Positions 20,692 through 38,290 of a DNA stretch of 58,886 nucleotides are shown here, in pieces. The position numbers and the translations under genes were made by a program. The stretch's first letter is position 1; each line of letters starts with the position of its first letter. Under the pieces are notes generated by a model. The model was not told the origin of the DNA. It did not search any database and saw only the letters and a program-made list of their open reading frames with translations. Source of the DNA: a virus (taxonomy: Duplodnaviria; Caudoviricetes); the IMG/VR virus record IMGVR_UViG_3300008116_004701, positions 1 to 58,886 of that record; one strand, 5' to 3'.

Positions 20692-23600
20692 CTACTTGTC
20701 AAAAATTGTACTACCTGAACGATAAATTCTAATAGCTTGTGCAGGTCCAGGAATTAATTCTCCTGCATGCACTGCCCATTTAGAATCTCCTTTAAAAGGA
20801 CCTGAACGAAATTCGTCATTTTCTTTATCATCATCAAAATTCTTTTTAATGTCTGATACTAATTCATAAGAATCTTGTACTAAACTAGCCATAGGAATAG
20901 CTGTTTTAGTTAATTTTTCAAATTCTAATGGGTTAGTGTAAAAACCTATATCTGTACGTAAACGAATAGTTTGGTTTAATAAAAAGTTAGTCATCATTTG
21001 ATCTTCGTCGTCATCGTCAATAGCAGCTTTTAACAATAATGCTACTCCCATAAGGCCTAACATAATATGAAGTTCCATCATATTTTTTCGCATATTAGCA
21101 GCATCAACTTCTCCAAACTTAGTATCATACCCAGGTTTCATAAACATTAGTTTTCTTGCTAATTGTTTGAGAGAGTATAATGTATCTTCAACTGCAGAAT
21201 ATTGGGTTTGCATGCCTCCTATTTTTCCAGCAATAATACCTATACCTGCACCAATAGCAGTACCGATTCCTGGTAGCATCATGGTACCAATGCCTATACC
21301 TGCAGTAGTAAGTTGGCCTAATGTATAACTACGATATCTACCTTTGCGAATGTATGGAGTATCCATACCATAGCTTAACATATCGTCTACTTTTTCGCCT
21401 TCAAATCTGTTGGCAAATCCTTCAAACATCCATGTTCTAAATTGGCTTAACGCACGTCCTGCCGCAGTTGATTTGACTTTTAGTTGATTATTATAATCAC
21501 CGTGAGTCATTTCACTAATGCGCTTAATTTTTTGAATTACTTTAGGAATATCAGCATCTGTAGTATAGCCGTCTTTTAACTTTGCATTTTGACCCATAGC
21601 TTCCCAAAGACTGACTTCATTGCCTTCAGGATCTTTAGCTTTCATGTCCATTAATACAGCAATCATAATTGGTGCTTGGTTCAAGTATTCAGAACGTTGT
21701 TGAATAGTATAAGGGCCGAAGCGTTTAAGTTTAGAAAGGCTAGACTTTTGTGAATTATCGTAAAGTTCGTTAGCTGAAGTTTGTAGAATATCCCAATCAT
21801 CCATTAAACTTCTAATCTTAGTAGCAGCTCCATTAGGATCATTAAATAAGATATCAGCAGACATATTTCTTCCAATAGAATTTAAAGTAAGCATGTATGC
21901 TTTACGAAGATTAGCACTATTAATTAATCGACCATCTGCACCTTCTATTAAGTTAGATATTAAGCCAAAACCGATGTTAGAAAAACCACTTGTTAAGTTC
22001 CATCCTAATCCTTTTAAAGTGCTAAATTTTAAAGCAGTATCTACAACACCACTAGCAGTGCGGTAGCCTCCTAATGCATCAATCTGTGCTTGTAAGAAAG
22101 TTTTTTCGTCTTCATCTTCTTCTTCAGCGAGTAGTTTTTCTAACTCTTTTTTACGAAGTTCTTCTTCTTTAGTGTAAAGCTTAGTTTTAGTAACACCTTC
22201 TACTTTACGAGTACCAGTGCCATAAAAAGTTTTAAGAAAGAAATCTAAACTATCGTTTAGATTTTTAAGGCCTTCTTTTGTTACAGGAACTTGTTTCCCA
22301 TTAATAGTTTTAGTCTGTACTTGTCCCGCACGGTTGGTTTGTAATTCTTTACGTTCTCTAAATGCCTGTTCTACTAGTTTAATCTGGGGCTCAATATTAG
22401 TTTTATGTTTATATGCTAAAATATTAAGAGCATACGCTTTAAGCACTTTACTAATATCCCAAGATTTATCCTTAGAGAGCATATCTCTAGCTTCTTCTTT
22501 AAATTTTTTACGATCTTCAGCTGTTGGGGGATTACCAGTTTGTTGTCTAAATGCAATACTTTTCTCACGTACTAGCTCATTAACTCTAGAATCAGTATCT
22601 TGAATATACTGTATCTGCACACTTTGTTCGATATCACCTGTAAGTGGGTCGATATCAGAAGTAATGCTAGTAGCAAAGTCAGTAGTAGTCTGTAGTTGTT
22701 TGAACTTATCCCATAAAGGAGTTATTCCTACCATCATCCCTTTTTCAGAAAATAGGTCTAATAGAGTTTTTTCTAGCGTAGGAAGTACTCCCACCCCCAT
22801 AATACGTTTTTTCTGTGGAGGGAGTAAGTAATTTAAGCTTTTAAGAGTATCTCTAATATAATTATGATAAGCTAGTAAATCTTCATCTGCTTCAATCTTA
22901 TCAAAGTTTTTATCGTACCATCCTGTTTCTTTGCCGTCAGCAAATCTTCTAGGTACTTGAATAATATATTCTCTAAGACCGTGTACAGCGTAGTAACTAT
23001 TATCTGGTTTAATACGTAAAGAAGGATCTTCTTGCATATCCATCATTGCGTAAGGAGAATTTTCTCTTAACCATTCTTTAAACTTAACATCTTTCTCATC
23101 TTGAGACCAATTAGCATTATTTTGAATACTGTCATAAACTACAGTACGTTCTTGTTGGAACTTTTCAATTTTATTTTTAGCACGATCGATAAATAAATTA
23201 TATCCTTTTTCGCCAAGTTGCTTTTTTAAATCAGCAATATGAGCCGCTTTTTGCTCTTCTGTGAAAGTCTTATAATTATACACAAACTCTTCAGGAACTA
23301 GTGTATCTTCAGGTAAACTATCTGGAAACAAAATACGAGGATCAAACATAATAGTGTTTGCTCTGTTCCAGTCAAAGAAATTTTTAATTAAAGCTGAATC
23401 TTTTTTAGTTTTTCCTGTATTTTTATCTCGACGATTAAATGCTTGATCAATTAACTCATTACGTTTTTTATAAAACTCATCAGAAAATCTATCTACTAAA
23501 CGACCTGTTTCTAAACCTCCTGCAGTGCGCTGTTTTAAGATATCATAGCTATTACCTGACTTTTTAAGAAACTTAGTAGTTAGCTCATCTAGTTTTTTAA

Positions 23601-24699: not shown

Positions 24700-24705
24700 T
24701 ATAAA

Positions 24706-27700
24706 TTATTTACCACAAATTAACAAATATTTTTCATACATATCTTCATCCATTTCTCTTGTTGCAAGGAATTCATCAGAGAAAGCACGATTAAATGCTT
24801 CCCAATCATCAGGTGAAGGTGTGAATGTATCTTTTTCTTGGAAACCAGAAGGTAGAGACTTTTTCTTAACAGCTGGAGATATTTTACTTGTATCTAGTTT
24901 ATTAGTAAAAGGCTGAGCAGGTGTTTGAATACTTCTAAGCTCGTCTCTTACTTCCATAAGTAATTTTGGAAACTCTTTGCCCCATTTAGTTTTATCTTGA
25001 GTATGTGTAAGAGTAGCGTTACCTGTAGCAAGTAGTTTAGCTAGAGCATCTGGATTTTGTTCAAAAGATTCTTTTAGTAATTCTTTCATAATTCTAGAAG
25101 AATTTTTATCCCATTCTTTTGTATCTAATCCTGTAATTGTTCTGCCTAATGCTTTAGCTTTTGCTCCTGTAACATTCATTAATTCTAGTACAATAGGTAA
25201 TCTATCTCCTATACCCATAGATGAATATCTAAATTTAGCAGCTTGAAATGCTCCTTCTACTGTATTAAAAGTACCATGGATAGTCACGACACTTTTAAAA
25301 GGCCTAACAGCAAAATTACTTAACTCAGCATTTTCTCCTGTACCTGCATAAATATTAATAGTTGTGTTAGATAGTATACTAGGTTCTGTAGTAGTATCAA
25401 ATCCTGTTAGAGTTGCTTTTATTCCTGGAGCAGGCGCAAAAAATACATCGTCTTGTAGTGATTTTCTTTGTGTAGAATCGATCAAATCAATAGTTTCTTT
25501 AACTGCAGAAGCTAAAGCTGTACCTGCTTTAATATCTATACCTAAAGAATTTAAGAGTTGTAACAACAAATCTTTGAGTTTATCCATCATAGACTTGTCT
25601 TCTACTTTTACTTTATTTAACCATGCCTGGAATCCTTGGTCAGTAAGCGCCATAGTAACAAACTCTGTAAGTTTGATAGCACCGTAGTATTTACTTAAAC
25701 CTTTATCTGTAGTAAAAGGAGTTCTTGTAGCAGGGTCTGCTTTTGCCCAAGTATTAAATTTTTCTATAAATTCATTTAACTCATTACGATTTCCTTGAGT
25801 TTCTAAATAATTAATATAACTTAACTGTAAAGCTTTTAGGTTATCAATAATCTTTACTTGTTCAGCAGTAAGTTTATCCATTCTACCTGCCTGATAATCT
25901 CTAATCGCCTCTCCTGTAAAAGTATGAATTAGTTCATGTGCTACAGTATTAGCAAGATCGTTAACTGTTTTATGATTTTGATGATTTAAATTTATAAACA
26001 AAGTCTTAGTTGCATATTCATATCTGCCTCGAACACCAGCTTCTTTTACAAACTCAAATTTAAATCCTTCTGGAAATATTAAACTATGAAGTTTTTCTAA
26101 AAGTAATTTGTTAGTAGTACTAACAGTAGGATCGGATAGTAGTCTATCAACTAGGTCATCAAATGCTCGTTTACCTGACATGTTTGTATCTACACCTAGT
26201 TGATTAGGTGGAGTTTGTTGTACAGGATTGTTTACAATATTAGGATCAAATGTCTTAGTAGGTTTAACAAGAACACCTTGGATTGTGGTACCTGGAGCAA
26301 CTACGCTTGGTTTGTTGTCTTTAATCTTAGGTTGATAAACAGGAACAACTACAGCATTCTGTGAGTTATACTGTGTAAAACCATAAGTACCTTGTAGTAC
26401 AGGAATACGGTTGTATTTACGAGTAGATTCATCAAACTCGTATAATGCGTACTTAGATTTATTATTCTTATTATCATCTCTGATAGTTAAGAAATGCGTC
26501 TGTGTCTCAGTCATATCTCCAGATACAGGATCTACAACACTTACAAAATTTCTTTCTAATGCTTCTTTATCTAACTCAAATGATTCTGGAACTGTACTTA
26601 CTTTACCTTTTAAGTCGCCAAGAGATATTGTTTTAGCAAGGTTTGGATTATTTTGAATGTATTGACGAGTAAAACTACTAGGCATGCTATAAATAGGGTT
26701 GCCTAAATCGTCAACTATTCCACCAAAAGTACGTTCAAAATCAAAAGGAATTCCTTGCAGATAGTTGCCAAACCCTAAAGTTTTTAAGTATCCAATAGGA
26801 ATATAGCGCATGTATTGTTTAGAACCTTGTATACCGCCTTCTAAGAAGGCCGCTGTAATAAGATCTTGTGCAAGAAGTCTAGTAGTATAATCAATACCGT
26901 TAAAGTTTCCTAGAGGAACGTTTTTAGAAAGCAAATATGCAAAGCCTGCATAAATGCTGCGCTCGTCAAAATTAGCAGCATTACTAGACTCAAAGTTAAT
27001 TCTTGAAACATCTCCATTACTGTTAAAGTTAAACGTAAGTTTATTTAAGAATTGATTGTTTTGATACCAAGGTTGAGTAGATAACTCTTGTAGTATAGTA
27101 GCAAGACTTTTGTTTTCACCTTCTTTATCGATAAATAATCTTGCTCTTTCTTCATCTGGATTGCCTAAAAATAAACTACTTCCTTCATTAGAATAAAAGT
27201 AAGATTTAATATCTTGGAAAATTTCTGTTTGTACATCGGATAACTTAGTGCTGCTAGCAATTACTTTATCTCCACTAGGAATATGTTTAAGAACTTCTTT
27301 AAATATTGTTTGAAATCCGTCTGTATTATACGGAAAATATGGAGCGTAAATATTATTAGCAAACATAGTTCCGTATTTAGAAGCATATCCACTAATAGTT
27401 GTTGGTACAAACTCTTTATTTTCTATTGTACCTAGTAGACTATTTGCATTAAATACATTAGATAAAGGAAGGTTTTCAATCTGAGTTACTTTAGTATTAG
27501 TTTCTAACAAAGATTTGGGAATGCCTTTAGATGCAGTATTAATAGCTGATTGTATTTTCTTAATTTCTTCACCTATTCCATCAAGTTTTAAAAACTTATT
27601 TAAAATCATTAACTGTCCTATATTATAGTCAGTTGATTTAGTAGGATTAAATTTAGTCTCTTTTAGGTTTTCTAAAAGTTGTTCTCCAGACATGTCACCT

Positions 27701-29700
27701 AATTTTTCATAGGCTAACATTTGACTTTCAGAAGCTTCTGTTAATTTATTTTCAGGGTCGTATTTTTTACGAAGCTCCTGCATCAATTCTGCTTGGAAGT
27801 TAGCATTATATTTACTAGTAGTAGATCGATTAGCTTTTATTCGATCTAAGTACTCCCAAATGATGTCTTGAGTAATAAGCCCTGCTATATCTGTTTCTTC
27901 AAACCCAAACATTACCATAGCACGTATTGCGCCAAAAGTATCTGAGTTAATATTTAGTTTATCAAGAATCTGCTCTTTTTCGTTATCTACTGCAGTAGAC
28001 TGTAGTGCTCGAATAATTGCTGATTTAAATTTAAGAGACTCTTTTTCTTCTTTAGTAAGCTCACGTTTTTCTGCTTTAGCTCTATTAATAAGAGCTTGAG
28101 ATTTAAGAGTATATGGATTAGACATATCTCCTTTAGAAACAAACTCTCCAAATGTTGCTACAGGCATATTAGCTTCTGCTAACTCTTGTGCAGTAGGAAT
28201 ACGTGGATTCATTGGTGTACCAAATAATTCTACATACGCTTCGTCATTAAGATTTTGATAAACTAAATCTTTGCCTTGTGCATTAGCATTAAAAGTAGAA
28301 TCAAGAGAAAATGATCCTACACCATCTTTACCTGCTGTTGCATTAATGTATTTAGTACGTTGATAAATATCAGAAAGAATAGTAACAGGTGTAGGGTTTA
28401 CACCCTTCTCGGAACGTATTTTATTTACTTCTGCAGCTAGACCTGTAAATTCTCCAGAACCATCAAGTGCAATAATACTAGCAATCACTTCAGGGTTAGT
28501 ACTAGTCATTACATCTAAATGGATATCTAAGATCTTATTCTGTTTAGCTGCTACATAAGAACGATTTAAGATCGATAAGCGATCTATTAATGTTTCGATT
28601 TGACCAGGCTCTAGAAATTTTTTATCCAAACTTCTTGTGATAATTTCATTAGCTTGCGACGCCAAAGTAGAATCAATATCATCTTTTTCTTCATTACTGT
28701 CTATAGTATTCTTAATGTAATCTCTTAGTATTTTATTTTCTTCTTTTGAAAGCTTTAATCTTTCTTGTATATCGTTTAAAGTTTCTTTAGCAATCTTAAT
28801 TTGCGCTTCTATTTTTTTAGGATCAGATAGAAAGTTAGTATATAGCTTGCCATTTTGATAAAAATGATTGTACATGTATGTGTACAATTTATCAACGTCA
28901 AAGTCGGACCCCATTTGTTTAGTAAAATCTCTAGGCGCTAAGACTAAATCCCCCATTGCTTCTGGTAAAAATCCTACTATTTCTACAGCAGCCATAGAGT
29001 TACGGCTTTGAGTAGGAATACGGAATCCAAATAGTTGAAGTAGTTTTTCAGGAACTTTAGTAGTGTCTAATAAACCATCTTTTGTTAAAAATTCCTCTAT
29101 GTTCAAGATTTCTCCACGCTCATTGCGAAACTTAAATGGAATCATAATTTGAGCAGGTAACATTTTACCTGTTGCAGGATCTACACGCAAAGGTTGTAAC
29201 CCTTTAGTAGCATCAAATTTATTTGTGAATACGATATCAGAATTCTTTAAATCTCCTGCTGCAGCATCACCTTCTTTAATTTTAATCCCTTCTTCAGAGC
29301 CGAGTACATAAGAATTACCCGTAAACTTTTGTTTAACTACTTTATTACTAACGAGTGACGTAAGTAAACTTTCAAATTTATCTGCATAAGGAGATGCCCA
29401 CAAAGGAATTTTAAAGTTTTGTTTGTCTTCTGTTAATTCTAAAGCAGACAACATGTTAGGCGCATATCCTTGGCGAGTTTTGATTTCTTGAGCAAGAATC
29501 TCAGCAAGTTTAACTGCGGGAATTGTAGTTCTTTCTATGATTTTTTTGTCAGCAACTTTAACTTTAGAGCTATCTTTTTTAAATCCTGGAAGACTCAGCT
29601 TACCGTTAGCAACTAAAGTATCTAAAAGGCCTTCATTTAAAAGTGCCTTAAATTCATTTTCAGAGACCCAACGACCCCCTACAAAGTACTGACAAGCCAT
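24706..29700 (-). CDS. Virion RNA polymerase catalytic (beta'-like) half fused to zincin and NADAR domains, 1664 aa
   Basis: FRIPTQ..NS and GSDFDVDKL (DxDxD at 28891-28905, compare phi14:2 gp66 DFDID), AVDNEK. Zincin: AHELIH...EFV. NADAR: LSNF...TVEGAFQAAK...AKALGR...W...M...F.QNP...LLATG. Confidence 0.9.
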   Translation of the reverse strand: MACQYFVGGRWVSENEFKALLNEGLLDTLVANGKLSLPGFKKDSSKVKVADKKIIERTTIPAVKLAEILAQEIKTRQGYAPNMLSALELTEDKQNFKIPLWASPYADKFESLLTSLVSNKVVKQKFTGNSYVLGSEEGIKIKEGDAAAGDLKNSDIVFTNKFDATKGLQPLRVDPATGKMLPAQIMIPFKFRNERGEILNIEEFLTKDGLLDTTKVPEKLLQLFGFRIPTQSRNSMAAVEIVGFLPEAMGDLVLAPRDFTKQMGSDFDVDKLYTYMYNHFYQNGKLYTNFLSDPKKIEAQIKIAKETLNDIQERLKLSKEENKILRDYIKNTIDSNEEKDDIDSTLASQANEIITRSLDKKFLEPGQIETLIDRLSILNRSYVAAKQNKILDIHLDVMTSTNPEVIASIIALDGSGEFTGLAAEVNKIRSEKGVNPTPVTILSDIYQRTKYINATAGKDGVGSFSLDSTFNANAQGKDLVYQNLNDEAYVELFGTPMNPRIPTAQELAEANMPVATFGEFVSKGDMSNPYTLKSQALINRAKAEKRELTKEEKESLKFKSAIIRALQSTAVDNEKEQILDKLNINSDTFGAIRAMVMFGFEETDIAGLITQDIIWEYLDRIKANRSTTSKYNANFQAELMQELRKKYDPENKLTEASESQMLAYEKLGDMSGEQLLENLKETKFNPTKSTDYNIGQLMILNKFLKLDGIGEEIKKIQSAINTASKGIPKSLLETNTKVTQIENLPLSNVFNANSLLGTIENKEFVPTTISGYASKYGTMFANNIYAPYFPYNTDGFQTIFKEVLKHIPSGDKVIASSTKLSDVQTEIFQDIKSYFYSNEGSSLFLGNPDEERARLFIDKEGENKSLATILQELSTQPWYQNNQFLNKLTFNFNSNGDVSRINFESSNAANFDERSIYAGFAYLLSKNVPLGNFNGIDYTTRLLAQDLITAAFLEGGIQGSKQYMRYIPIGYLKTLGFGNYLQGIPFDFERTFGGIVDDLGNPIYSMPSSFTRQYIQNNPNLAKTISLGDLKGKVSTVPESFELDKEALERNFVSVVDPVSGDMTETQTHFLTIRDDNKNNKSKYALYEFDESTRKYNRIPVLQGTYGFTQYNSQNAVVVPVYQPKIKDNKPSVVAPGTTIQGVLVKPTKTFDPNIVNNPVQQTPPNQLGVDTNMSGKRAFDDLVDRLLSDPTVSTTNKLLLEKLHSLIFPEGFKFEFVKEAGVRGRYEYATKTLFINLNHQNHKTVNDLANTVAHELIHTFTGEAIRDYQAGRMDKLTAEQVKIIDNLKALQLSYINYLETQGNRNELNEFIEKFNTWAKADPATRTPFTTDKGLSKYYGAIKLTEFVTMALTDQGFQAWLNKVKVEDKSMMDKLKDLLLQLLNSLGIDIKAGTALASAVKETIDLIDSTQRKSLQDDVFFAPAPGIKATLTGFDTTTEPSILSNTTINIYAGTGENAELSNFAVRPFKSVVTIHGTFNTVEGAFQAAKFRYSSMGIGDRLPIVLELMNVTGAKAKALGRTITGLDTKEWDKNSSRIMKELLKESFEQNPDALAKLLATGNATLTHTQDKTKWGKEFPKLLMEVRDELRSIQTPAQPFTNKLDTSKISPAVKKKSLPSGFQEKDTFTPSPDDWEAFNRAFSDEFLATREMDEDMYEKYLLICGK

Positions 29701-29705
29701 AGCAA

Positions 29706-30182: not shown

Positions 30183-33100
30183 TAATCACAATTTTTAAAC
30201 TGGTCATTCTCGTCGAAGAAGTAATTAATCTTAGAGTCTACTAAGCCTTCAACGATTTTATCAAAGTTTTGATTTATAAAGTTAATTCTTTCTAGGTTAT
30301 CAGCACCTATTTCATCTTCAAATTCTTGTAAAGCAGTCTGTTTCTTAATCGGCGATTTGATTTTAGAGATAGCATCCATCTTTTCTGCTATCTTCTCAAC
30401 CATTTCTGGATCGGCTTCTACTTCATTAAATTGTTCTAGAACATTGTCTTCAGTAATTTCTTCGTAAAGACCTAAACGTTTAGCAAGTTTTTTCTGATTG
30501 TACTCAAATAAATCTTGATAAGCACTGTTATATTCTTTAACTAGGTCTTTACCTGTTTTGTCTTTAGTTACTTGAACATCTAACAAGTCTACAAATAGTA
30601 ATGCTCGTTCTTGGGTACCTACGTTGATTTCAGCTTTTTCTCGTTTATACGGTACATCTTGCTGAATTCTAAAGTTGCTACGATCTAGTACTAAAGTGTT
30701 TTCAGGTTTAACTTCAAAGTTATCTACAACATTGCCGTTGTCATCAAAAGTCTTAATTTCACTAGCAACAGCACCTACTTTATTAGCAGTACCAAAAGAT
30801 GCTCTAATAAATTTAGGTTGTCCTCCTGCAGTGATATCTTTAGATACACTTTCTTCGTACTTTTCTAATCCTTGTCGGATTTTGTCTATTTGTAAGCCTG
30901 CAGTAAACTGTGGAATAAGTGGAAAACTCGAAGATTTAATGTATACACGGCGGTCTGCATTGTCTTCTACACTTGTCATGTTACCCACATACACAGGTTT
31001 CATAGGCTGCATTACTAGTCCTAGTTCTTCATATGTAAGTTTTGTGTTGTTATTTATAACACCTGCAGATTGCTGAGTTAGCTTCTTGTTAATAGTATTG
31101 TATTGGAAATCAGTAAGACGTCCTAATTGGTTTAATACATATAAGTGTTCTTTCCAAGTAGTGTATTCCTGAGCATCTGATCCTTCTATCTCTCCATAAC
31201 CTTTTTTGCCGTCACTGTAATCTTTGTTAATCTTTTCAAAAAATTCTTTTTGTACAGAATCTTTAAGGTTATTACTTTTAAGTTTTTTATCTTGTAAGAA
31301 TACTTGTAAGTATTTATTGTTAGCACTATCTGCCAACTCTAATCCTGGTGCAATATCTCCAGCAAGACGTTTACCCATATTGATAAAAGTTGCTGATAGA
31401 TTTTCTAAAGTAGTGTTACCATCTTTAAACTTAGCATATAATGCAGGGTCTCCAGTAAACAACTTCATCATTTCGCTGTTAGCAATAAGAGAGTTAAATA
31501 CATAATCTGTAGCAGCAAAACGTACTCTAGCAGCTTCTCCTACACCTTTAGCAATGTTGGACATGTAAGCAGAGTCTAAGAAAGTATACTTGTCAGTTAC
31601 ACGTCCTTTAGCGTCTTTTATAGTTTGTCCAATTCCAAGATTGTTCCAGTCTTCTAGCTTTTTATCTACAAGAGTGTTAAGAGTTTCTTGTAAGTAGTCG
31701 TATACAGCTTGTTTAACTTCTGGGTTAACTACAGCATCATTTCCTGAACGAACAAGGTCTCTGTAGTTTTGCATAGTGCCGTTTACTTCTACTATTAGAT
31801 CGTTTAATGCTGGGAAGAAATAAAAATATTCAGGTTCGTATCCTGCAATATCTGACTTGCCTTCTAACACTGCGGCACGGATTCTGTTAATCTCTGGCTG
31901 TACTGTTGCTTGGTAAAGACTTTCTAAGTTAGCATCAGTAACACCTCCTGGCGTCACAACTACTTGTTGGGCTAAAGCATTGACTACTAACATCGTAGTC
32001 TTATCCGACATTGTAGGATAGAAATAAGAAACTTTTCTGTAGGTCTTACCGTCAGCAACTTGTTTGCTTCCGTTAAAGAACATACCTAGTTTTACTAACT
32101 CATGTTCGTCGACAGTAAGTTTGTTTAGCTTACGGTCTTCTTGTGACTTAGTATACTGACGTTTAAGTGCTTCAAGAGATAGATAGTCTATACCTAAAGA
32201 ACTTCTCATTAAATCTCCTGTTTCTCCATCTTGAGTAAGCGCTGCCAACCATAAGCTATCTCTTGTAAATGAGATTTTTTTAAGCTTGTCAATTAAGTCT
32301 TGATTAATAAACTTTTTATTATCACTGTCGTAACTAGTAAGATCGCGCATGCGATTTACTAGATAATTATTGTTACCGTAAGAATAAATAGTCTTAGTAC
32401 CTGCACGGAAAGAATTACTAAAATTACTAGCAGTATTAATTGCTTCTAATTTAGATAATGCTTTGATTGCAGAATCTTTTAACAGTGACTTATCAGCTAT
32501 TTTATCGGGGTTATTAGCAATAGCTTTAAGTTCTTCTTTTAGTACTTTTACTAACCCAGAACTAGTATTAAAGAGTGCTTCCCAAGATTTACGGCCAGAA
32601 TTGTTGTATTTACCAGCACGTAAATCTTTATAAGTAGCATCAGACAGTACAATACCAAAATTACCTAACCATTTAGCTAATTCTTCATTTGTTACGTCTT
32701 TAGGATTTTTTTCCCATTCAGAAGCAATAGTTACTATATCATCTACTACTTCCTTATTGTATATATAATCACCTGCTTCGTTAACTAAAATAAGATTATT
32801 ACCTGGTTTTAAAAGATTGCTACCCCAATAATCTCTGAGGCGCTCTTCCATAGCACTAGAATTACTTGACCAACGTTGTAGAGAATAATTACCATATTGA
32901 TCTTTATTCCACATAATAAACTTCATACCGATATGATGTTTAGCCATATCTGATACAAACTCATTTTTAATTCTTTCTGGAGAATTTTCTATGTTGTCAA
33001 TAACAGTTTGTAACCATGGGAATGCTTCAGTATATAATCCTAAAGTATCTAACATTATATCTAAGTCGGCAGGTTTATTTGCCAATAACATATGGAGAGT

Positions 33101-36100
33101 GTCGTAAACTTGATCAAAAGGAATGATTTCTGGGAAACCTAATTCATTAGTCATTACGGCACCGTTAGCATCACGTGCTTCAACAAATGCAAAGAACTTA
33201 CGTAAATCGGCACTTGCTGTAGCTTTTGAGTTAATAGTAAACGCCCAGTCGTCTGAGTAAATTGTCTTTTCTAGACCTACTGTTTCTTCACTTTCATCGA
33301 GGTCCATACTTTCGTCTACTCGTCCTGTAGAAAGTACACTCATGTATTGGTTTACTAAACTTTGTAGTTTAGGAAATTGATCGACAATTTTATCTAGTAC
33401 TGCAGCTTTTTTAGGAAAACCATTGTTTCTATAAAAATCTGCTAGTTGTTTTAAAGATTCTTTATGTTCTTCAAATACAGGAAGAGTTTCTAAAGTTTTC
33501 TTGCCACCAACTTCTTTAAGAGCTAAGGCTCTTTTCATGATGTCTGCAGCAATATAAGATTGCAAAGATTCTTGAGTACGTGGGCTAACGCCTTCTAATA
33601 GTAGTTCCCTAGCTTCAGCAACAATAGTTTCTACTTGATCGGGCTCAATAGTAGCCAAAGCATCATCAAAAGTATCTTCTGAAATATCAGTGCTGTCTTT
33701 AGTATTACCATCTACTTTAATAGTTAATCCATTAGGTAAAGTAATACTGCCTGTGTTTTGTGTTGAACGGGCTTTATATAATTCTAATGCTTTGTTAAAA
33801 CTGTCTACAGCATTTTGCTTAGACTCAAAGCCGTTAGCTACAGCATCTTCGTCTGTCTTTAAAAAAGTACCGTCTCCTAAATTTTGAATATATCCTTCTA
33901 AAGTTTTAACAATAGACTCAGGAGCTACTGACTCTAACATCTGAGAGATAATCTGCTCGGCATTTTCAGTAACAGTATCTGCAACAGGTGGTGTAGTAGT
34001 AGCTGTAGGTTGTGTAGCAACAGGCTGTTCTAAAGCAGCTAGTTCTGCATCATATTTAGCATTTATATCTTGTAACTCTTTTTCTAATTCTTTAATTGAT
34101 TTAGTCTTACCTGTAAAGTCTTGTGCATAATATTTTTTTAAAGCATTCTTCCTTTTTCTTTCTATATTAGCTTTTTGAGCTTCTATATCAGTAGATGGTG
34201 CAGCAGGTTGACTTGCTGGCGGAGCACTTGGCGGTGTAGCTGTAGAAGCAACAGGCGCAGGCTTAGGCAATTGATTAGCATTAAGCTTTTGTGTCTGTAG
34301 TTTACCAGCAAACTTAGTATCAAAAAGAATAGTTGGCTGAATAGTATAAACCCATTTAGGCTTATCTTCTGTGCCAATGTTAGCAGAGATTACGTTACTC
34401 TTAGTAGAACGTTTAATTTGATCTAAGTAACTTAGAGTCTCTGTTTCTCCTTCTCTATTTAAAACTATTACAGTAGGAGTGTTTTCTTGTAGAGCTTCAA
34501 TTCTTACGTTACTTACCATTTGTGCTAACACATTAGTAAGCTTTGTAAGATTTTCTGCATTTAATCTTTTACCAAAATTTGATCCTTCAAAGTTTCTAGA
34601 GATTACTACGCCATATCGTTGGACTTCACTACCATCTTGTTGGACGTATTTGTTCATCATAATGCCTGGACGGCCGAATTCTATACCTGTTTTAGTAATA
34701 GACAGTAACGGCGTAGTAGAAGGTAGAGCACTATTAGTACCGCCTTGCATTAATAAATTCTCAATAGATTGCCCTTTAGCAGGAAAAATATAAGTAAATT
34801 GATTAACATAGTTAGCTAACCCTACTGAGTCTGTGATATCGTGACCTGTAGCATCAGCAATAGCTTTAACTACAGGATTGTTAATATCTCCAGTAAGATG
34901 TGCTTCAACCGCTAATACAATAGAGTTAACAACCTCAGCTGCTAACTTAGTACGCTCTAAAGGAATAGCTAAAAATTTATCAGGACCTACTTTAACTATA
35001 GCATAAGGACGACCTGCTTGAGTATCTTCTTTATTTATGATTACTCCTTTTTTGCCTAGTAGATTTTCTTTAGAGTTTGCAAATTTATATTCACCGTCTT
35101 TACCTACAGCAATAATTAACTTATCATCAGGCATTGCTTCTGTAAGAGGTAAAGACTTTCCGTCTGCAGTTTTAAACAAACGACCAAAACTTTTATAATC
35201 TACTTTAGATTTAACAGTTCCTTTTTCTACAATAGATTTACGGATTAAGTAATTTTTTTGTCGGTCTTCAGCAATTGCTTCTTGTGTATTGTCTAAGTTT
35301 TCCGCCTTGTACCAAGAGTTATCGTGTACGTAAAATACAGTTTCTCCTGACTCAAGAGTAACTTTAATAGGAACTTCAGCAATATACTCTGGCAATTGGT
35401 TTAATGGAATGTTACGATTTTCAGCAATCTGACGTAACTCTGCTAAACGTAATGGCCATGCTATTGTCTCACGAGTATTACTTTTAGGATCGTATTTCTC
35501 TCCTTCATACTCAGTATCTATAGTCATAATTAGTTTAGTACCTGGCTGCAATGCATCAGGGTCTAGTACTAATTGATTATCTTCGAGTTGATCAGTAAAC
35601 TCTTCACGATTTACAGTAAGTATTTCTGCAGTTTGATTAAAATCTCTTGATAAAAATGCTGCACGATTATGTCCTTCTGCAGCTCTATCGTAGCTATAAA
35701 TTAAATTACCATTGACGTCTTGGCCTATTAAATAAGTCTTGTCGTTTTGATTAAGAGATTCTGCAGCATTAGTAGTGCGCTTAGAAGCTTGGTCTGCTTC
35801 ATTTTTTGGGTCAGGTAATCCATCAGGAAGCTCTGTTTCAGTGTCTTTGTTGTTCTGATCGTTAGCATCTTTTGTTTCTTGTTCTTCAGTTTCATTACCT
35901 TGTTGAAATTGATCAAGTGGATTCTTAGGAGGAGCAGTAGGATTCTTTAAGCGCTCTAAATGATCAGAATACTCCATGCGAAGTTGATCTTTTTTATTTT
36001 GACTTATTTCTGCATCATCTATTGCTTTTTGGATTTCATCATAGTTTGCATCTGTAGAAGCATTAATTTTAGAACGCAACTGTTGCATTGTAAGTTCGAC

Positions 36101-38290
36101 TTGCTTTCTTTTTGCAGCTGCCGCATTACTTTGTTTGATAGTATCAATCTTTGCTTCTGCAAGTTGTCTAAACTGCTCATCGTCAGTTTGATCCATTAAT
36201 TTTTCTACATCAGGAATAGTTTGTGCGTTAACTAATTCAGCATTAAGAGTTTTAAGTAATTCTTTTTTAGCTTGTTTAGCTTCATATTCTTGTTGATATT
36301 TTCTACTAGTAAGTGTAGTAAACTCTTCTTGATTGCTTTCTATTAATTTATTTAATAGCTCTTCCTGCCCTTGATAACCTTCATACTGCTCGTATTCAGG
36401 AGTATTTTTGACTTCTTTTAAAAACTTGTTGTAAGTTTTTTGGTTCTCTTTAGTATCTCCTTGATTATTTTCAATATCGCTAAGTACATAGTTAAGAGGA
36501 ACTTCTTTCTTTTTTGGAGTACGTTTTACCTCAACACCTTCTACTTTATCAATCTGATCGTACTCTTCCGTAAACTTATACTTCTGAGCAATGTCACGCA
36601 CTTTTTGTGCGTAAGCAACTTGAGCATTCTTAGTAAGAGTACCTGTTGTATTTGCTTGACGGTCTAATCTTTGTTTGGCTGCACGGTTATAAAAAATCTC
36701 ATCGGCGTTTTTATACTCTTCAAAGTTATTATAGACTTCTTCTAATTCTTTTAAATTTTCTAAAGCTTTTTTAGCATTAGCTAAATATTCAGGACCTACT
36801 TCTGCAGGATCCTTAGCCATTTCTTCTTTAAGTTGCTCTTCTAAGATATCTGTAGTACCAGATTGAAAAGCTTTTAATGCAGTGTTTTCAAAAAGTTTTT
36901 CTCGAATCTCTTGCACTTTAGCATCATCTCCACGATTTGCAGCATCAAACAATTCTTGTTCAAATTGCATGCGCTCGTTGATATTCATTAAAGCATCAGT
37001 AACTTTAACTCCGTTTTGTTTAAGTTCTTCAATTACTTTTTGCTGTCTCTGATATTGCTGACGAAGATTTTCGTTATAACTAATTTTGTTACCATTTTCA
37101 TCAAGAGTAGCACCTGGGCCATATTTACTAGACCTTAAAGCTGAAGTAATAGCAGTTTGTCCTGCTCCACCTATAGCTCCTAAAAAAGCAGCTTCTAAGC
37201 CTTCCATAGTACTAATAGCTTCAAAACCTTTTTTCATGTAATCCTTCTCACCACGTCCTTTAGCTTCTCCAGCTTTTTGCGCGACAAGGTTAACAGTTTC
37301 TTCTAAAGCTTCTTGCCCTGCTTCTAATCCTACTTTACCTAAAGTAGCTCCTAATGTAGGAGCAATAAGAAGGTTACGGGTAGATTTCATTGGGGTCAAG
37401 AATGCTTTTGCAGATGTAAGATTTAGAAGAATATTAGCACGGTTAATATTCATTGTAGTTGCAGCAGCTCTTGCAGCATCTTCTTTTGCTTCTGTGTCAC
37501 TCTTACCTTTAGCTCTAGAATTTTGGTAAGTATTTTTATAAACCTGGGTAGCTTCAATAACAGCTTCTGCTTGGTTCATCATAGTAGCTGCACCAACTTG
37601 GCCTACTACACCTCCTACAGTTTTAGCATTTTTTGCCCCCATTACAGTCGCTGCTAAACCACGAGCTAATGCTTTACCTCCTAATGATGCTAACTTACCT
37701 GCTCCCATACCTGTAGCAGCAAATGCAGTAATAGATTCTACAAGACCTTCGCCTCGTGTCATCCACCATGCAAAGTCTCCAAGTTGCATTGAACCACTAG
37801 GATTTTCTTCATAAATAGGTAAAGCTTCACTAGATTTTTCTTTAATACTATCTGCCCAATTAACAATAGAATTAGTTGCTGCTTCTTCTGCACTAAAATA
37901 CCCAGGAAGATCTAACATAGCTGCAGCTCCTCCAATAATTTGAGGCACTATATTTACAGCAAGTCTACCTATTGCATTTCCTGCTTGTTCCCAATTAGAT
38001 TGGTTTTCTGCTCTTAAAGTATTAAGAAAATCTGTATCAAACTGTCCTCCACGTAATGTATTACGATCTATGTAGTCTTCATATGCATCATAAAAATCTG
38101 GAGAATCAATGTTGTACATTGCATCTACTCCACTGTACCCTGCTATCCTGCCTCCAGCTTCTTCTTGTGCTTTTTCGTAATCAGGAAGAACTCCTGATTT
38201 AATAGCTTCATTTTTACTTTGTTGTATTAAACTATCAAGTTTTGAAGTATCTGGAAGTTTATTAATAGGAGGCGTTGTATTTTTAGGCAT
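30182..38290 (-). CDS. Giant virion protein carrying the beta-like half of the virion RNAP, 2702 aa
   Basis: C-terminal motifs PTMSDKT, LFTGDPALY, KRLAGDIAPG, SDAQEY, MKPVY, YIKSSSFPL, IQQDVP, GTQ. N-terminal Gly/Ala hydrophobic helices. Single Cys at the penultimate residue. Confidence 0.85.
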   Translation of the reverse strand: MPKNTTPPINKLPDTSKLDSLIQQSKNEAIKSGVLPDYEKAQEEAGGRIAGYSGVDAMYNIDSPDFYDAYEDYIDRNTLRGGQFDTDFLNTLRAENQSNWEQAGNAIGRLAVNIVPQIIGGAAAMLDLPGYFSAEEAATNSIVNWADSIKEKSSEALPIYEENPSGSMQLGDFAWWMTRGEGLVESITAFAATGMGAGKLASLGGKALARGLAATVMGAKNAKTVGGVVGQVGAATMMNQAEAVIEATQVYKNTYQNSRAKGKSDTEAKEDAARAAATTMNINRANILLNLTSAKAFLTPMKSTRNLLIAPTLGATLGKVGLEAGQEALEETVNLVAQKAGEAKGRGEKDYMKKGFEAISTMEGLEAAFLGAIGGAGQTAITSALRSSKYGPGATLDENGNKISYNENLRQQYQRQQKVIEELKQNGVKVTDALMNINERMQFEQELFDAANRGDDAKVQEIREKLFENTALKAFQSGTTDILEEQLKEEMAKDPAEVGPEYLANAKKALENLKELEEVYNNFEEYKNADEIFYNRAAKQRLDRQANTTGTLTKNAQVAYAQKVRDIAQKYKFTEEYDQIDKVEGVEVKRTPKKKEVPLNYVLSDIENNQGDTKENQKTYNKFLKEVKNTPEYEQYEGYQGQEELLNKLIESNQEEFTTLTSRKYQQEYEAKQAKKELLKTLNAELVNAQTIPDVEKLMDQTDDEQFRQLAEAKIDTIKQSNAAAAKRKQVELTMQQLRSKINASTDANYDEIQKAIDDAEISQNKKDQLRMEYSDHLERLKNPTAPPKNPLDQFQQGNETEEQETKDANDQNNKDTETELPDGLPDPKNEADQASKRTTNAAESLNQNDKTYLIGQDVNGNLIYSYDRAAEGHNRAAFLSRDFNQTAEILTVNREEFTDQLEDNQLVLDPDALQPGTKLIMTIDTEYEGEKYDPKSNTRETIAWPLRLAELRQIAENRNIPLNQLPEYIAEVPIKVTLESGETVFYVHDNSWYKAENLDNTQEAIAEDRQKNYLIRKSIVEKGTVKSKVDYKSFGRLFKTADGKSLPLTEAMPDDKLIIAVGKDGEYKFANSKENLLGKKGVIINKEDTQAGRPYAIVKVGPDKFLAIPLERTKLAAEVVNSIVLAVEAHLTGDINNPVVKAIADATGHDITDSVGLANYVNQFTYIFPAKGQSIENLLMQGGTNSALPSTTPLLSITKTGIEFGRPGIMMNKYVQQDGSEVQRYGVVISRNFEGSNFGKRLNAENLTKLTNVLAQMVSNVRIEALQENTPTVIVLNREGETETLSYLDQIKRSTKSNVISANIGTEDKPKWVYTIQPTILFDTKFAGKLQTQKLNANQLPKPAPVASTATPPSAPPASQPAAPSTDIEAQKANIERKRKNALKKYYAQDFTGKTKSIKELEKELQDINAKYDAELAALEQPVATQPTATTTPPVADTVTENAEQIISQMLESVAPESIVKTLEGYIQNLGDGTFLKTDEDAVANGFESKQNAVDSFNKALELYKARSTQNTGSITLPNGLTIKVDGNTKDSTDISEDTFDDALATIEPDQVETIVAEARELLLEGVSPRTQESLQSYIAADIMKRALALKEVGGKKTLETLPVFEEHKESLKQLADFYRNNGFPKKAAVLDKIVDQFPKLQSLVNQYMSVLSTGRVDESMDLDESEETVGLEKTIYSDDWAFTINSKATASADLRKFFAFVEARDANGAVMTNELGFPEIIPFDQVYDTLHMLLANKPADLDIMLDTLGLYTEAFPWLQTVIDNIENSPERIKNEFVSDMAKHHIGMKFIMWNKDQYGNYSLQRWSSNSSAMEERLRDYWGSNLLKPGNNLILVNEAGDYIYNKEVVDDIVTIASEWEKNPKDVTNEELAKWLGNFGIVLSDATYKDLRAGKYNNSGRKSWEALFNTSSGLVKVLKEELKAIANNPDKIADKSLLKDSAIKALSKLEAINTASNFSNSFRAGTKTIYSYGNNNYLVNRMRDLTSYDSDNKKFINQDLIDKLKKISFTRDSLWLAALTQDGETGDLMRSSLGIDYLSLEALKRQYTKSQEDRKLNKLTVDEHELVKLGMFFNGSKQVADGKTYRKVSYFYPTMSDKTTMLVVNALAQQVVVTPGGVTDANLESLYQATVQPEINRIRAAVLEGKSDIAGYEPEYFYFFPALNDLIVEVNGTMQNYRDLVRSGNDAVVNPEVKQAVYDYLQETLNTLVDKKLEDWNNLGIGQTIKDAKGRVTDKYTFLDSAYMSNIAKGVGEAARVRFAATDYVFNSLIANSEMMKLFTGDPALYAKFKDGNTTLENLSATFINMGKRLAGDIAPGLELADSANNKYLQVFLQDKKLKSNNLKDSVQKEFFEKINKDYSDGKKGYGEIEGSDAQEYTTWKEHLYVLNQLGRLTDFQYNTINKKLTQQSAGVINNNTKLTYEELGLVMQPMKPVYVGNMTSVEDNADRRVYIKSSSFPLIPQFTAGLQIDKIRQGLEKYEESVSKDITAGGQPKFIRASFGTANKVGAVASEIKTFDDNGNVVDNFEVKPENTLVLDRSNFRIQQDVPYKREKAEINVGTQERALLFVDLLDVQVTKDKTGKDLVKEYNSAYQDLFEYNQKKLAKRLGLYEEITEDNVLEQFNEVEADPEMVEKIAEKMDAISKIKSPIKKQTALQEFEDEIGADNLERINFINQNFDKIVEGLVDSKINYFFDENDQFKNCD

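Follow-up and report, generated by a model that had tools for sequence, protein, structure and literature searches.

Cysteine content of the giant proteins

Why should three giant phage proteins, 5,701 aa taken together, contain only four cysteines, and why should all four be placed at termini that face each other? The window, the whole stretch of DNA analysed here (58,886 nucleotides), encodes these proteins on its minus strand. The features concerned are the following.

30182..38290, minus strand: 2702-aa protein, putative N-terminal part of the virion RNA polymerase block (phrog_16227; BLASTP to gp66)
30185..30577, minus strand: tail extension at the C-terminus of the 2702-aa protein (residues ~2572-2702), ending ..NYFFDENDQFKNCD
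29706..30182, minus strand: 158-aa ferritin-like ORF inside the 2702|1664 split (PF00210, E 3e-12; 4 Cys)
24706..29700, minus strand: 1664-aa protein, putative catalytic part of the virion RNA polymerase (homology to gp66)
29635..29700, minus strand: N-terminal head segment, MACQYFVGGRW.., of the 1664-aa protein, with head motif A (MAC[KQ]Y.[YF].G)
20692..24699, minus strand: 1335-aa protein at the end of the block; its homologue in phi14:2 is the C-terminal part of gp65

The sole cysteine of the 2702-aa protein is residue 2701 (codon 30188-30190, ..KNCD*). The 1664-aa protein has Cys 3 (29692-29694, MAC..) and Cys 1662 (24715-24717, ..LICGK*) and no others, and the sole cysteine of the 1335-aa protein is residue 5 (24685-24687, MAIAC..), within head motif B (M..ACPNKNSKEW). 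All four residues lie at most 5 residues from the facing termini, and the outer termini of the trio are Cys-free. The initial annotation had described four cysteines in 5,701 aa, all at facing termini, for which the ORF translations give identical coordinates; its statement that the outer ends have none held up in the translations of the 2702- and 1335-aa proteins. It was correct on the terminal cysteines and missed two things, the ferritin-like gene in the 2702|1664 split and the C-terminal Cys of a 976-aa protein upstream. The 2702- and 1664-aa proteins, which it had treated as direct neighbours, are separated by the 158-aa ferritin-like ORF; with its 4 Cys, this ORF is outside the Cys-free set.

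In the remaining ORFs of the window 82 Cys were counted in 12,823 aa (0.64%). The expectation for 5,701 aa is 36.5 against the four observed (Poisson P of four or fewer, 1e-11), and the chance that four Cys would all lie no more than 5 residues from the four facing termini is 1.5e-10.

Identity of the block

The Cys-poor block extends upstream, where ORFs of 976, 1236 and 859 aa contain 1, 0 and 0 Cys, respectively. These ORFs, the muzzle gene and the motifs within the 1664-aa protein are listed below.

47571..51878, minus strand: 1435-aa crassvirus muzzle protein (PF25731, E 1e-137; 5 internal Cys)
44641..47571, minus strand: 976-aa cargo-like protein, poor in Cys, with an ADP-ribosyltransferase domain; the final residue (44644-44646) is its single Cys
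40909..44619, minus strand: 1236-aa protein with the crassvirus cargo protein 1 domain (PF25725, E 6e-30; zero Cys)
38327..40906, minus strand: 859-aa Cys-free protein directly upstream of the giant proteins, without family match
28891..28905, minus strand: DFDVD at residues 266-270 of the 1664-aa protein, catalytic motif for metal binding (sequence motif)
25924..25938, minus strand: HELIH at residues 1255-1259 of the 1664-aa protein, of the zincin-like HExxH type (sequence motif)
24973..25335, minus strand: NADAR domain at residues 1456-1576 of the 1664-aa protein, ahead of the ..LLICGK tail (PF08719, E 6e-13; 2b3w, E 3e-7)

The window is part of a crAss-like phage, as judged from the muzzle and cargo-1 Pfam domains, the DFDVD motif and the homology to gp66 and gp65 of phi14:2. 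Judged by homology and neighbourhood, the 2702-, 1664- and 1335-aa proteins would be the virion-packaged RNA polymerase with associated cargo; the muzzle protein and cargo protein 1 lie upstream of them on the same strand. The 859-aa protein is possibly cargo protein 2, going by its position alone. Matches to phrog_16227 in the RNA polymerase block had E values of 1e-68 and 4e-70. In BLASTP, gp66 residues 856-1127 align to residues 2256-2571 of the 2702-aa protein (E 5e-19), gp66 residues 1145-1548 to residues 23-462 of the 1664-aa protein (E 1e-16), and gp65 to the 1335-aa protein (E 3e-10). The 2702-aa protein thus corresponds to phi14:2 gp67 plus gp66 up to about residue 1127. Its tail extension has no aligned counterpart in phi14:2 gp66, and the last ~94 aa have none in the fused protein of one relative (L008).

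A DFDxD motif has been described for gp66, and a zincin-like protease is mentioned for the RNA polymerase block (10.1101/2020.03.07.982082). An alignment that includes FpV4, crAss002 and IAS virus keeps the pattern G.D[FY]D[IV]D without exception, and one relative (L006) gave a weak SprT-like match at the position of HELIH. PDB searches with the tail, the head and the giant proteins matched NADAR proteins alone (2b3w, 8bau) and no gp66 chain; neither the 2702-aa protein (best E 0.22) nor the head alignment found a PDB relative.

Reality of the gene splits

The 1664- and 1335-aa ORFs share one frame and are separated by TAA and 6 nt; TAA is also every stop read at the junctions. No tRNA genes were found within the window, and the TAA between the two ORFs is kept in relatives at 97% and 88% identity. 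A TAA stop, retained in relatives, in a window devoid of tRNA genes indicates that the 1664|1335 split is real, and stop-codon recoding or read-through joining the two ORFs was rejected on the same grounds. A group I intron or homing endonuclease at the 2702|1664 split is unlikely on the Pfam result: the inserted ORF is ferritin-like and not an endonuclease. A small ORF of 157-166 aa occupies the same position in four relatives (L002, L003, L006, L007).

Within the window the RNA polymerase itself is split ~220 residues before the catalytic motif, and the gp67|gp66 junction of phi14:2 is fused. The cysteines behave reciprocally. gp66 has no Cys at the split site of the window, and none is present in the 2702-aa protein where phi14:2 separates gp67 from gp66.

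Terminal cysteines in relatives

Cysteines were counted in homologous loci. A query of IMG/VR with a single protein returned 2 loci, and an alignment query was then used. The 81 sources analysed are the window and the best 80 of 518 relatives, with loci at 27-60% identity, so that the sample leans toward the kin of the window. Gene calls were crude (first ATG; ORFs of at least 100 aa).

Across the window and the best 80 of 518 relatives, ORFs of at least 900 aa contain 269 Cys in 441,525 aa (0.061%), compared with 669 in 75,338 aa (0.89%) for smaller ORFs. In these 81 sources, 180 of the 269 Cys of the large ORFs lie within 10 aa of a complete terminus. N-terminal Cys, present on 92 of 147 termini in the same set, occur exclusively at positions 3-7. 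At the 161 C-termini of the set 90 Cys were counted, every one in the last 15 residues and 75 of them at -1 to -4. No Cys was seen at N-terminal positions 8-30 or C-terminal positions 16-30 in the 81 sources. The flanking residues are very variable, with K, N, E or G after the C-terminal Cys and A, S or K before the N-terminal one, and the tail is retained when the module preceding it is swapped from NADAR to helicase.

Junction profile of the window and the best 80 of 518 relatives. Among 115 adjacent junctions, Cys is found on both sides in 79, on neither side in 27, on the N-side only in 8 and on the C-side only in 1. The Fisher P for this co-occurrence is 4e-18, a value that ignores kinship among sources. 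At two of the N-only junctions the sole Cys of the upstream protein lies 12 and 15 residues from its end. Mapping of splits onto fused references by BLAST worked for 20 of 76 junctions, the rest being too divergent.

The initial annotation had proposed a Cys count in homologous loci, to see whether terminal pairs accompany split genes and are missing from fused ones. The counts agree with it: terminal pairs track the splits (79 of 115 junctions with both, 27 with neither) and are absent in the fused forms described below. One split carries no Cys (3249|673 aa, L061); it may be an assembly artefact, since a relative (L059) is continuous at that site.

Could the pattern lack any function at the protein level and reflect chance, annotation artefacts or a by-product of nucleotide signals at the junctions? 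N-terminal positions do hinge on start calls, which took the first ATG only, and the terminal Cys of the 976-aa family is weakly conserved and can be replaced by Tyr, as in 3 of the 12 homologues that share its end motif. The C-terminal Cys, however, are independent of start calls. The probability for the window is about 1e-10, and Cys density near termini is ~288 times the internal density in the window and the best 80 of 518 relatives. Of 76 homologues of the 1335-aa protein in the database, 73 have an invariant Cys at positions 3-6 amid variable neighbours, and these homologues hold 5 internal Cys in 106,175 aa. The distance of the Cys to the stop (-1 to -15) or start (3 to 7) and the codon context vary, so a fixed RNA signal does not fit. 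A reading without function is strongly disfavoured, and we give it hardly any credence.

Loss of the cysteines in fused forms

No Cys is found in five complete fused proteins (L021, L023, L025, L056, L065; 4730-5331 aa) or in four further fused forms cut at the 5' end. The 1664- and 1335-aa proteins of the window both align within the five complete forms, which cover all three window proteins. A search of the database for longer (fused) homologues of the 1335-aa protein found none, which is weak evidence. From the Cys-free fused forms it follows that a staple is unnecessary if the chain is continuous and that the enzyme can do without any Cys chemistry.

By our reading of the tree, splits occur in ~10 separate clades; the fewest changes on the tree are 9 and 8, and 6 and 5. 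Independent contrasts showed a joint shift of the Cys on the two sides in 4-5 of 6 pairs and in 3-4 of 4, and opposite changes in none. The sign tests on these contrasts gave P values of 0.06-0.25, each non-significant alone, with few pairs (6 and 4). Depletion of cysteines, their terminal placement and their pairing across junctions are seen in the sequences, as is, in many lineages, their tracking of splits versus fusions.

The terminal cysteines might instead anchor the cargo in the capsid until ejection, by linkage to a structural virion protein (portal, ring or capsid interior) or to a like copy. Tail proteins of crAss001 use disulfides, according to the accessible part of PMC10172136. 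The C-terminal Cys of the 976-aa protein has no N-terminal partner within the window, and a few N-terminal Cys are without a visible partner: L013 (1014 aa, N3), L042 (1118 aa, N6) and L043 (773 aa, N4). Anchoring, however, would predict neither equal numbers of C- and N-terminal Cys nor their restriction to split sites, and the fused forms, which would still need an anchor, have lost the Cys wholly. In crAss001 the counts balance (two C-terminal, two N-terminal) despite the rearranged gene order, and the predicted complex described below brings the two termini together. Anchoring is on these grounds improbable.

The same arrangement in model phages

The rule emerging from these counts, no Cys except one at each end created by a split, paired across the junction and lost on fusion, is also obeyed by phi14:2 (gp67 C1797, gp66 C3 and C2179, gp65 C3). 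It is followed in crAss001 (Gp47 C2339, Gp50 C5 and C2404, Gp49 C5), though the Gp47 gene is convergent, and in FpV4, cr11_1, cr116_1 and cr272_1. These phi14:2 and crAss001 proteins are homologous to those of the window and share with them the DFDxD motif and the neighbourhood of muzzle and cargo 1. The window differs from both phages in that the polymerase itself is split, gp67|gp66 is fused, a ferritin-like gene stands in the split and NADAR precedes the second tail. Internal Cys are present in some gut crassviruses (IAS 10 and 7, cr116_1 10, cr272_1 39 and 21), and internal Cys are therefore not lethal there.

Previous studies with phi14:2 revealed that the virions hold gp65, gp66 and gp67, named as three separate proteins, and that recombinant gp66 is active by itself (10.1101/2020.03.07.982082); a linkage is therefore not required for catalysis. 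The crAss001 homologues of the block are virion-packaged cargo, and the cargo must partly unfold at constrictions under 50 A, as stated in the accessible part of PMC10172136. The same part describes inter-protein disulfides in crAss001 virions, seen by cryo-EM between the tail hub and ring proteins (R1/R2).

Predicted docking of the facing termini

Co-folding of the facing termini was among the checks the initial annotation had proposed, and its outcome is in line with that proposal. The tail of the 2702-aa protein (150 aa) and the head of the 1664-aa protein (120 aa) gave a score of 0.80, compared with 0.00 for the best control. The predicted interface includes tail residues 145-150 (with Cys 149) and head residues 1-9 (with Cys 3); no S-S distance was given. 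Runs agreed in at least 57% of contacts, with a partner pLDDT of at least 60. Of 80 solved complexes 58 attain the 0.80 mark, as do 2 of 110 mismatched pairs; these counts hold roughly, since own alignments were used in the co-fold. Part of this result may reflect the joining of two halves of one gp66 domain.

Contact between the cysteines need not mean a disulfide. The tail and head could form a non-covalent docking module that serves assembly and lets the polymerase re-associate in the host; the facing Cys would then simply pack or share a metal. Co-occurrence, tracking of splits and predicted docking require contact and not a particular chemistry; virion assembly takes place in a reducing cytoplasm, many hosts live without oxygen, and in anoxic habitats the spontaneous oxidation of thiols is less obvious. 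Each terminus, however, offers one Cys, and no further His, Cys or Asp that could act as a ligand is conserved in the variable flanks. A structural metal site is rarely stable with a pair of thiolates as its only ligands. That Cys is purged everywhere else suggests redox reactivity as the selected property, and disulfides have been seen in crAss001 virions (accessible part of PMC10172136). We regard the metal or packing reading as unlikely.

A third possibility is that tail and head derive from a former ligation system, split-intein-like or other, which would rejoin the chain by a peptide bond with the Cys as catalytic nucleophiles. Extra segments do exist at the split (tail ~94-131 aa, head ~22-54 aa, depending on the reference). 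Their sizes are reminiscent of split inteins. The L007 orthologue harbours a true intein; the search that detects it gave no Hint or intein Pfam match with E up to 0.01 for either the 2702-aa or the 1664-aa protein. In addition, the Cys are at extreme free ends and not at extein-intein boundaries, where split inteins need their nucleophiles, and many junctions have very short extensions. Split inteins and the window thus have an extra tail and head at the split and Cys in common, whereas the window is without a Hint domain and its products stay separate, as do gp65, gp66 and gp67 in phi14:2 virions (10.1101/2020.03.07.982082). This origin is very improbable.

A proposed disulfide staple at each gene split

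The reading that we consider probable is that a disulfide staple at each gene split restores one threadable chain in the virion. According to the prediction, the C-terminal tail of one protein would bind the head at the N-terminus of its successor while both are in the reducing cytoplasm, and the docked complex would then be packaged. After release the apposed thiols would oxidise to give 2702-S-S-1664-S-S-1335, a nearly unbranched covalent chain, which would pass the tail partly unfolded, in fixed order and at 1:1:1 stoichiometry. Reductants of the host cytoplasm would finally cut the staples and set the subunits free. The initial annotation had put forward such a chain, with release in the reducing cytoplasm and a 1:1 ratio of the polymerase halves; the Cys counts and the co-fold came out as it would predict and support its reading.

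The initial annotation had known of no description of such a linkage, and the literature search likewise found no printed account of a disulfide chain linking crassvirus cargo proteins. 10.1101/2020.03.07.982082 and the accessible part of PMC10172136 are silent on cysteines or disulfides in the cargo proteins of these phages, the word 'cysteine' having 0 matches in either text. The disulfides of the crAss001 tail hub and ring resemble the proposed staples in joining different proteins of a crassvirus virion. They are structural and run side to side, whereas the staples would link cargo end to end and be broken on entry.

The arrangement may be compared with other systems. N4 gp50 and DEV gp71/72/73 are giant virion RNA polymerases and ejection proteins in which Cys is suppressed as in the window. 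The N4-like virion RNA polymerase is T7-like and belongs to another family than the crassvirus polymerase. It is a single polypeptide and so has no junctions; a terminal-Cys rule is unreported there. The initial annotation had taken the lack of Cys in N4 vRNAP as an established premise, and this is in print in the accessible part of PMC11445570. According to the same part, Cys frequency in DEV gp71 homologues is 0.00075% against 0.865% proteome-wide; in the giant proteins of the window, too, it is far below that of other proteins, as for the ejected proteins of Schitoviridae.

In polyketide and non-ribosomal peptide synthases, a short C-terminal docking tail binds the N-terminal head of the next protein and so sets the order of the chain. 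Those docking domains are unrelated in sequence, non-covalent and cytoplasmic; the likeness is one of working only, and no membership is claimed.

Implications for crassviruses

Crassviruses are among the most abundant viruses of the human gut. The cysteine rule predicts a covalent head-to-tail chain and bears on how these phages fit several very large proteins into the virion and send them through a narrow tail in the right order. In a wider form, which is possible and which we hold only tentatively, a disulfide would replace the peptide bond at every split of an ancestral ejected polyprotein of ~5,000 aa throughout Crassvirales, and the thread, kept in fixed order, would be cut only by the reducing power of the cytoplasm of a living host. 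If true, the threads would be gp67-S-S-gp66-S-S-gp65 in phi14:2 and Gp47-S-S-Gp50-S-S-Gp49 in crAss001; the prediction of a covalent chain is testable in these two cultured model phages. Release would then amount to a redox-triggered 'proteolysis without a protease', metering the subunits 1:1:1 and switching the polymerase on at entry. The staple would explain the free evolutionary tolerance of splits and fusions in this block, and it would add a positive use of cysteine to the known rule that ejected proteins avoid it.

The terminal Cys can also serve annotation as a marker of true protein ends, start codons and partners. In crAss002 gp33 it points to a downstream start (MSC..), and in crAss001 it pairs the products of convergent genes.

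Genomic context of the giant genes

The proteins encoded in the window show that it comes from a crAss-like phage, and the 58,886-bp contig is probably an incomplete phage genome. PF25731, the muzzle protein of crassviruses, is matched by a 1435-aa ORF (E 1e-137), and PF25725, the domain of cargo protein 1, by a 1236-aa ORF. The replication module also encodes helicases, a Toprim primase-like protein and a DUF2201 metallopeptidase/VWA protein. The features are as follows.

1-20539, plus strand (opposite to the giant genes): replication module
1326-3335, plus strand: family A DNA polymerase
20692-24699, minus strand: 1335-aa protein; sole Cys is residue 5 (MAIAC..)
24706-29700, minus strand: 1664-aa protein; Cys only at residues 3 (MAC..) and 1662 (..LICGK, stop)
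24973-25335, minus strand: NADAR domain of the 1664-aa polymerase protein, before its Cys tail
29706-30182, minus strand: 158-aa ferritin/rubrerythrin-like ORF (PF00210, E 3e-12; PF02915, E 2e-6); 4 Cys
30182-38290, minus strand: 2702-aa protein; sole Cys is residue 2701 (..KNCD, stop)
44641-47571, minus strand: 976-aa protein, Cys-poor, between muzzle and cargo protein 1

One 4401-position PHROG profile is matched in successive parts by the 2702-aa and then the 1664-aa protein. The G.DFD.D catalytic motif, invariant in crass-like virion RNA polymerases, is found as DFDVD at residue 266 of the 1664-aa protein. In phi14:2 the characterised enzyme is gp66; its residues 856-1127 align to the 2702-aa protein and residues 1145-1548 to the 1664-aa protein. 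Therefore, the polymerase of the window is itself divided between two genes, with the break about 220 residues N-terminal to the active site. gp65 aligns to the 1335-aa protein. In phi14:2 gp67 and gp66 are separate genes, whereas the corresponding junction is fused in the window.

Cysteine content of the giant proteins

The initial annotation had placed only four Cys in the three giant proteins (5,701 aa), all at facing termini, and ORF and translation checks reproduced them to the base. Neither outer end of the set has a Cys. The remaining ORFs of the window contain 82 Cys in 12,823 aa; about 36 are expected in the three giant proteins against 4 observed (Poisson P (≤4) = 1e-11), and P = 1.5e-10 for four Cys that all stand no more than 5 residues from the facing ends. 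The Cys-poor set had been drawn too narrowly: the three giant proteins belong to it, but the block reaches the 976-, 1236- and 859-aa proteins upstream (1, 0 and 0 Cys). The single Cys of the 976-aa protein is its very last residue.

The 2702- and 1664-aa proteins, described as facing neighbours, do carry terminal Cys on both sides, but the ferritin-like ORF, which had been overlooked, sits exactly within their split. Four related loci (L002, L003, L006 and L007) have a small ORF, 157-166 aa long, at the equivalent place. The 1664- and 1335-aa ORFs lie in the same frame, separated by TAA and 6 nt. TAA is the stop at each junction read, and no tRNA genes were found within the window. The stops and all four Cys are kept in relatives at 97% and 88% identity, in one of them in spite of a 500-aa insertion.

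Terminal cysteines in related loci

IMG/VR was searched with an alignment of the catalytic region, and the best 80 of 518 relatives (27-60% identity) together with the window gave 81 sources. Genes were called crudely, from the first ATG, with a minimum of 100 aa per ORF and overlaps removed. ORFs of at least 900 aa contain 269 Cys in 441,525 aa (0.061%), as against 669 in 75,338 aa (0.89%) for smaller ORFs. For 180 of the 269, a complete terminus is no more than 10 residues away, and the density there is ~288 times the internal one. At 147 N-termini Cys occurs at position 3 (39), 4 (21), 5 (28), 6 (3) or 7 (1); at 161 C-termini it occurs at -1 (18), -2 (37), -3 (15) or -4 (5) and, less often, at positions as far in as -15. 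None was seen at N-terminal positions 8-30 or C-terminal positions 16-30 of these termini. In smaller ORFs, 28 of 214 have Cys among the first 10 residues and 26 of 282 among the last 10.

Junctions, taken as consecutive same-strand ORFs of at least 500 aa each (n=115), had Cys on both sides in 79 cases, on neither in 27, on the N-terminal side only in 8 and on the C-terminal side only in 1 (Fisher P = 4e-18, uncorrected for shared ancestry). That the terminal pattern has no function is extremely improbable. Among the eight N-only cases, the upstream protein of L057 and L060 has its sole Cys 15 and 12 residues from the end, and in L022 and L058 a long gap is followed by an apparently unrelated neighbour. 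L072 belongs to a clade with a convergent partner gene ending in Cys, seen in all five such loci examined. An anchoring of cargo to other proteins through the terminal Cys has a slight chance of being correct. L013, L042 and L043 are left without explanation. The sole C-only case is the 976-aa protein of the window. Database homologues with the same end motif have Cys as the last residue in 9 and Tyr in 3; this mixture indicates weak conservation, and the Cys is thus probably not part of the terminal-Cys system.

Split and fused forms

It had been proposed to examine whether terminal Cys pairs appear at splits and vanish where genes are fused. Beside the paired junctions, the complete fused proteins are Cys-free (L021, 4933 aa; L023, 4799; L025, 5005; L065, 4730; L056, 5331). 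Both the 1664- and 1335-aa proteins align inside these five, the latter to L021 3846-4933 (E 6e-141). The 5'-truncated fused forms L011, L018, L041 and L074 likewise have zero Cys. The number of pairs follows the architecture, two-part forms having one and three-part forms two, as in L035: 1541 (C at -3), 2415 (N4 and C at -1), 1226 (N3). In the fused L008 protein, which has no internal Cys, the 2702|1664 split corresponds to position 2745; here the window has ~94 extra tail (C-terminal) and ~54 extra head (N-terminal) residues. One split without Cys, 3249|673 in L061, aligns flush to a continuous relative with ~134 residues missing and may be an assembly error.

In a FastTree phylogeny of the catalytic region, splits upstream of the motif occur, by our reading, in about ten separate clades. 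At the upstream junction (59 rows) its two sides need at least 9 and 8 changes, and at the downstream junction (69 rows) at least 6 and 5. Among phylogenetically independent pairs both sides changed jointly in 4-5 of 6 (upstream) and 3-4 of 4 (downstream), with no changes in opposite directions; each test on its own is underpowered (P 0.06-0.25). Taken together, the data show that a single Cys pair co-evolves at each split-created junction in ejected proteins otherwise purged of Cys.

Named phages and database homologues

When 76 database homologues were compared with the 1335-aa protein, Cys fell within positions 3-6 in 73 of them; the remaining three are one with Cys at 11 through a longer start call and two shorter calls beginning downstream. 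Internal Cys number 5 in 106,175 aa. By their sequences, the named genomes obey the terminal-Cys rule.

Cysteines in giant proteins of named phages
phi14:2: gp67 (1797 aa), only C1797; gp66 (2180 aa), only C3 and C2179; gp65 (1421 aa), only C3
crAss001: Gp47, only C2339 of 2341; Gp50, C5, C1334 and C2404 of 2412
crAss001: Gp49, only C5; Gp46, no Cys
FpV4: gp32, only C4286 of 4287; gp33, C3
cr11_1: C1987 of 1988; next protein, C3
cr116_1 and recoded cr272_1: terminal pairs present, many internal Cys
IAS virus: C2157 of 2159, then C5; internal Cys also

Read with table 11, the giant genes of cr272_1 (L088, 3356-29367) are interrupted by in-frame stops, 37 and 18 in number, and are therefore recoded; they have 39 and 21 Cys, yet end ..KKHCKN and start MIFCPN... 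Internal Cys are far more tolerated in gut crassviruses than in the environmental ones sampled. In crAss002 (L004, 11877-12150) the annotated start of gp33 puts Cys at 35. A Met 32 codons downstream would give MSC.., as in cr11_1 (MSCTV..) and in agreement with the rule, and the gap of 170 nt on the upstream side contains a hairpin with a T-run; the annotated start may be wrong. In IAS virus (L005, 10537-19519) the annotated 837- and 2159-aa genes overlap by 11 nt, with ambiguous bases near the end of the former. Together they are about as long as proteins that come in one piece in related loci (~2983 aa, L071) and may be one gene.

Predicted docking and the nature of the proposed link

Co-folding of the facing termini, suggested at the outset, was carried out with 150 C-terminal residues of the 2702-aa protein and 120 N-terminal residues of the 1664-aa protein (5-row alignment each). 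The score was 0.80 (runs 0.81, 0.80, 0.79) against 0.00 for the best of three controls. According to the tool, 58 of 80 complexes with solved structures and 2 of 110 mismatched pairs attain this mark, the runs agree in at least 57% of contacts, and partner pLDDT is at least 60; as custom alignments were used, the benchmark counts are only approximate. The confident predicted interface comprises tail 145-150 (Cys 149) and head 1-9 (Cys 3), the tightest terminal contacts being 146/147 with 5/6 and 138-141 with 5-7. We infer that an antiparallel register would set 149 opposite 3. The segments include halves of a domain continuous in gp66, so the pass may partly reflect that. No PDB chains resembling either segment were found by sequence.

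A non-covalent or metal-mediated contact between the terminal Cys, with which docking alone would be compatible, is unlikely, though it keeps a small real chance; each end offers a single thiol, and the variable flanks hold no second ligand that is conserved, which favours a disulfide. Purging of Cys elsewhere points to redox reactivity, and disulfides are documented in a crassvirus virion, both of which favour the same chemistry. A disulfide is thus the most economical chemistry for these pairs, and we consider it rather probable that disulfide staples operate at the gene splits. Tail and head would dock in the cytoplasm, the thiols would oxidise once the virion is released, the linked cargo would be ejected as a single thread, and the staples would be reduced inside the host. 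An end-to-end link leaves stubs of 2-6 and 0-14 residues, and the chain therefore remains threadable. It is curious that a di-iron protein is encoded right at the junction proposed to undergo oxidation.

Cys-suppressed ejected proteins (N4-like), the crassvirus cargo block and structural disulfides of the crAss001 tail are already known. As had been stated, N4 gp50 lacks Cys, likewise DEV gp71, and Cys is suppressed across the whole ejection operon of Schitoviridae, according to PMC11445570. In the crAss001 structure paper (PMC10172136), the cargo is Gp45, 46, 47, 49 and 50, which must unfold partly for constrictions under 50 Å, and the sole disulfides reported join the tail hub to ring proteins; its text does not use the word 'cysteine'. 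For phi14:2, the preprint on gp66 places gp65-gp67 in virions and describes their fusion into one polyprotein in some phages (10.1101/2020.03.07.982082); its text holds neither 'cysteine' nor 'disulfide'. The claimed novelty held in the open full texts searched, where no mention of terminal Cys or of disulfides linking crassvirus cargo proteins was found. The disulfide-link mechanism is new, if it holds, and two cultured model phages make an immediate test feasible.

Enzymatic modules in cargo proteins

Proteins of the NADAR family reverse the ADP-ribosylation of guanine. In L003:10001-16531 and L006:9824-17362 (88% and ~60% identity) a RecD/PIF1-like helicase (AAA_30 and UvrD_C_2) replaces it, and the ..LLICGK end is common to both versions. 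This exchange suggests swappable ejected counter-defence modules.

The 1664 orthologue in L007:9824-15028 (plus strand) has an intein from residue 376 to ~670, shortly after the catalytic region (Hom_end_hint, Hint, E 5e-22, and a LAGLIDADG homing endonuclease). The four internal Cys of this orthologue, at residues 376, 579, 585 and 615, are inside or adjacent to the matched domains and would be removed by splicing. Intein-like ligation at the splits themselves is very improbable.

In the 976-aa protein, aa 718-889 form a domain of the ADP-ribosyltransferase exoenzyme type (PF03496). Its homologues keep the N-terminal part with other C-terminal modules, e.g. a SET domain (PF00856). The protein resembles an injected effector of modular build, similar in concept to T4 Alt. 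Three longer homologues of the 1335-aa protein (P0111, P0133, P0137) have Pfam matches to Zeta-toxin/AAA_33 kinase-like and ART-PolyVal domains, which suggests that these cargo proteins, too, carry enzymatic modules.
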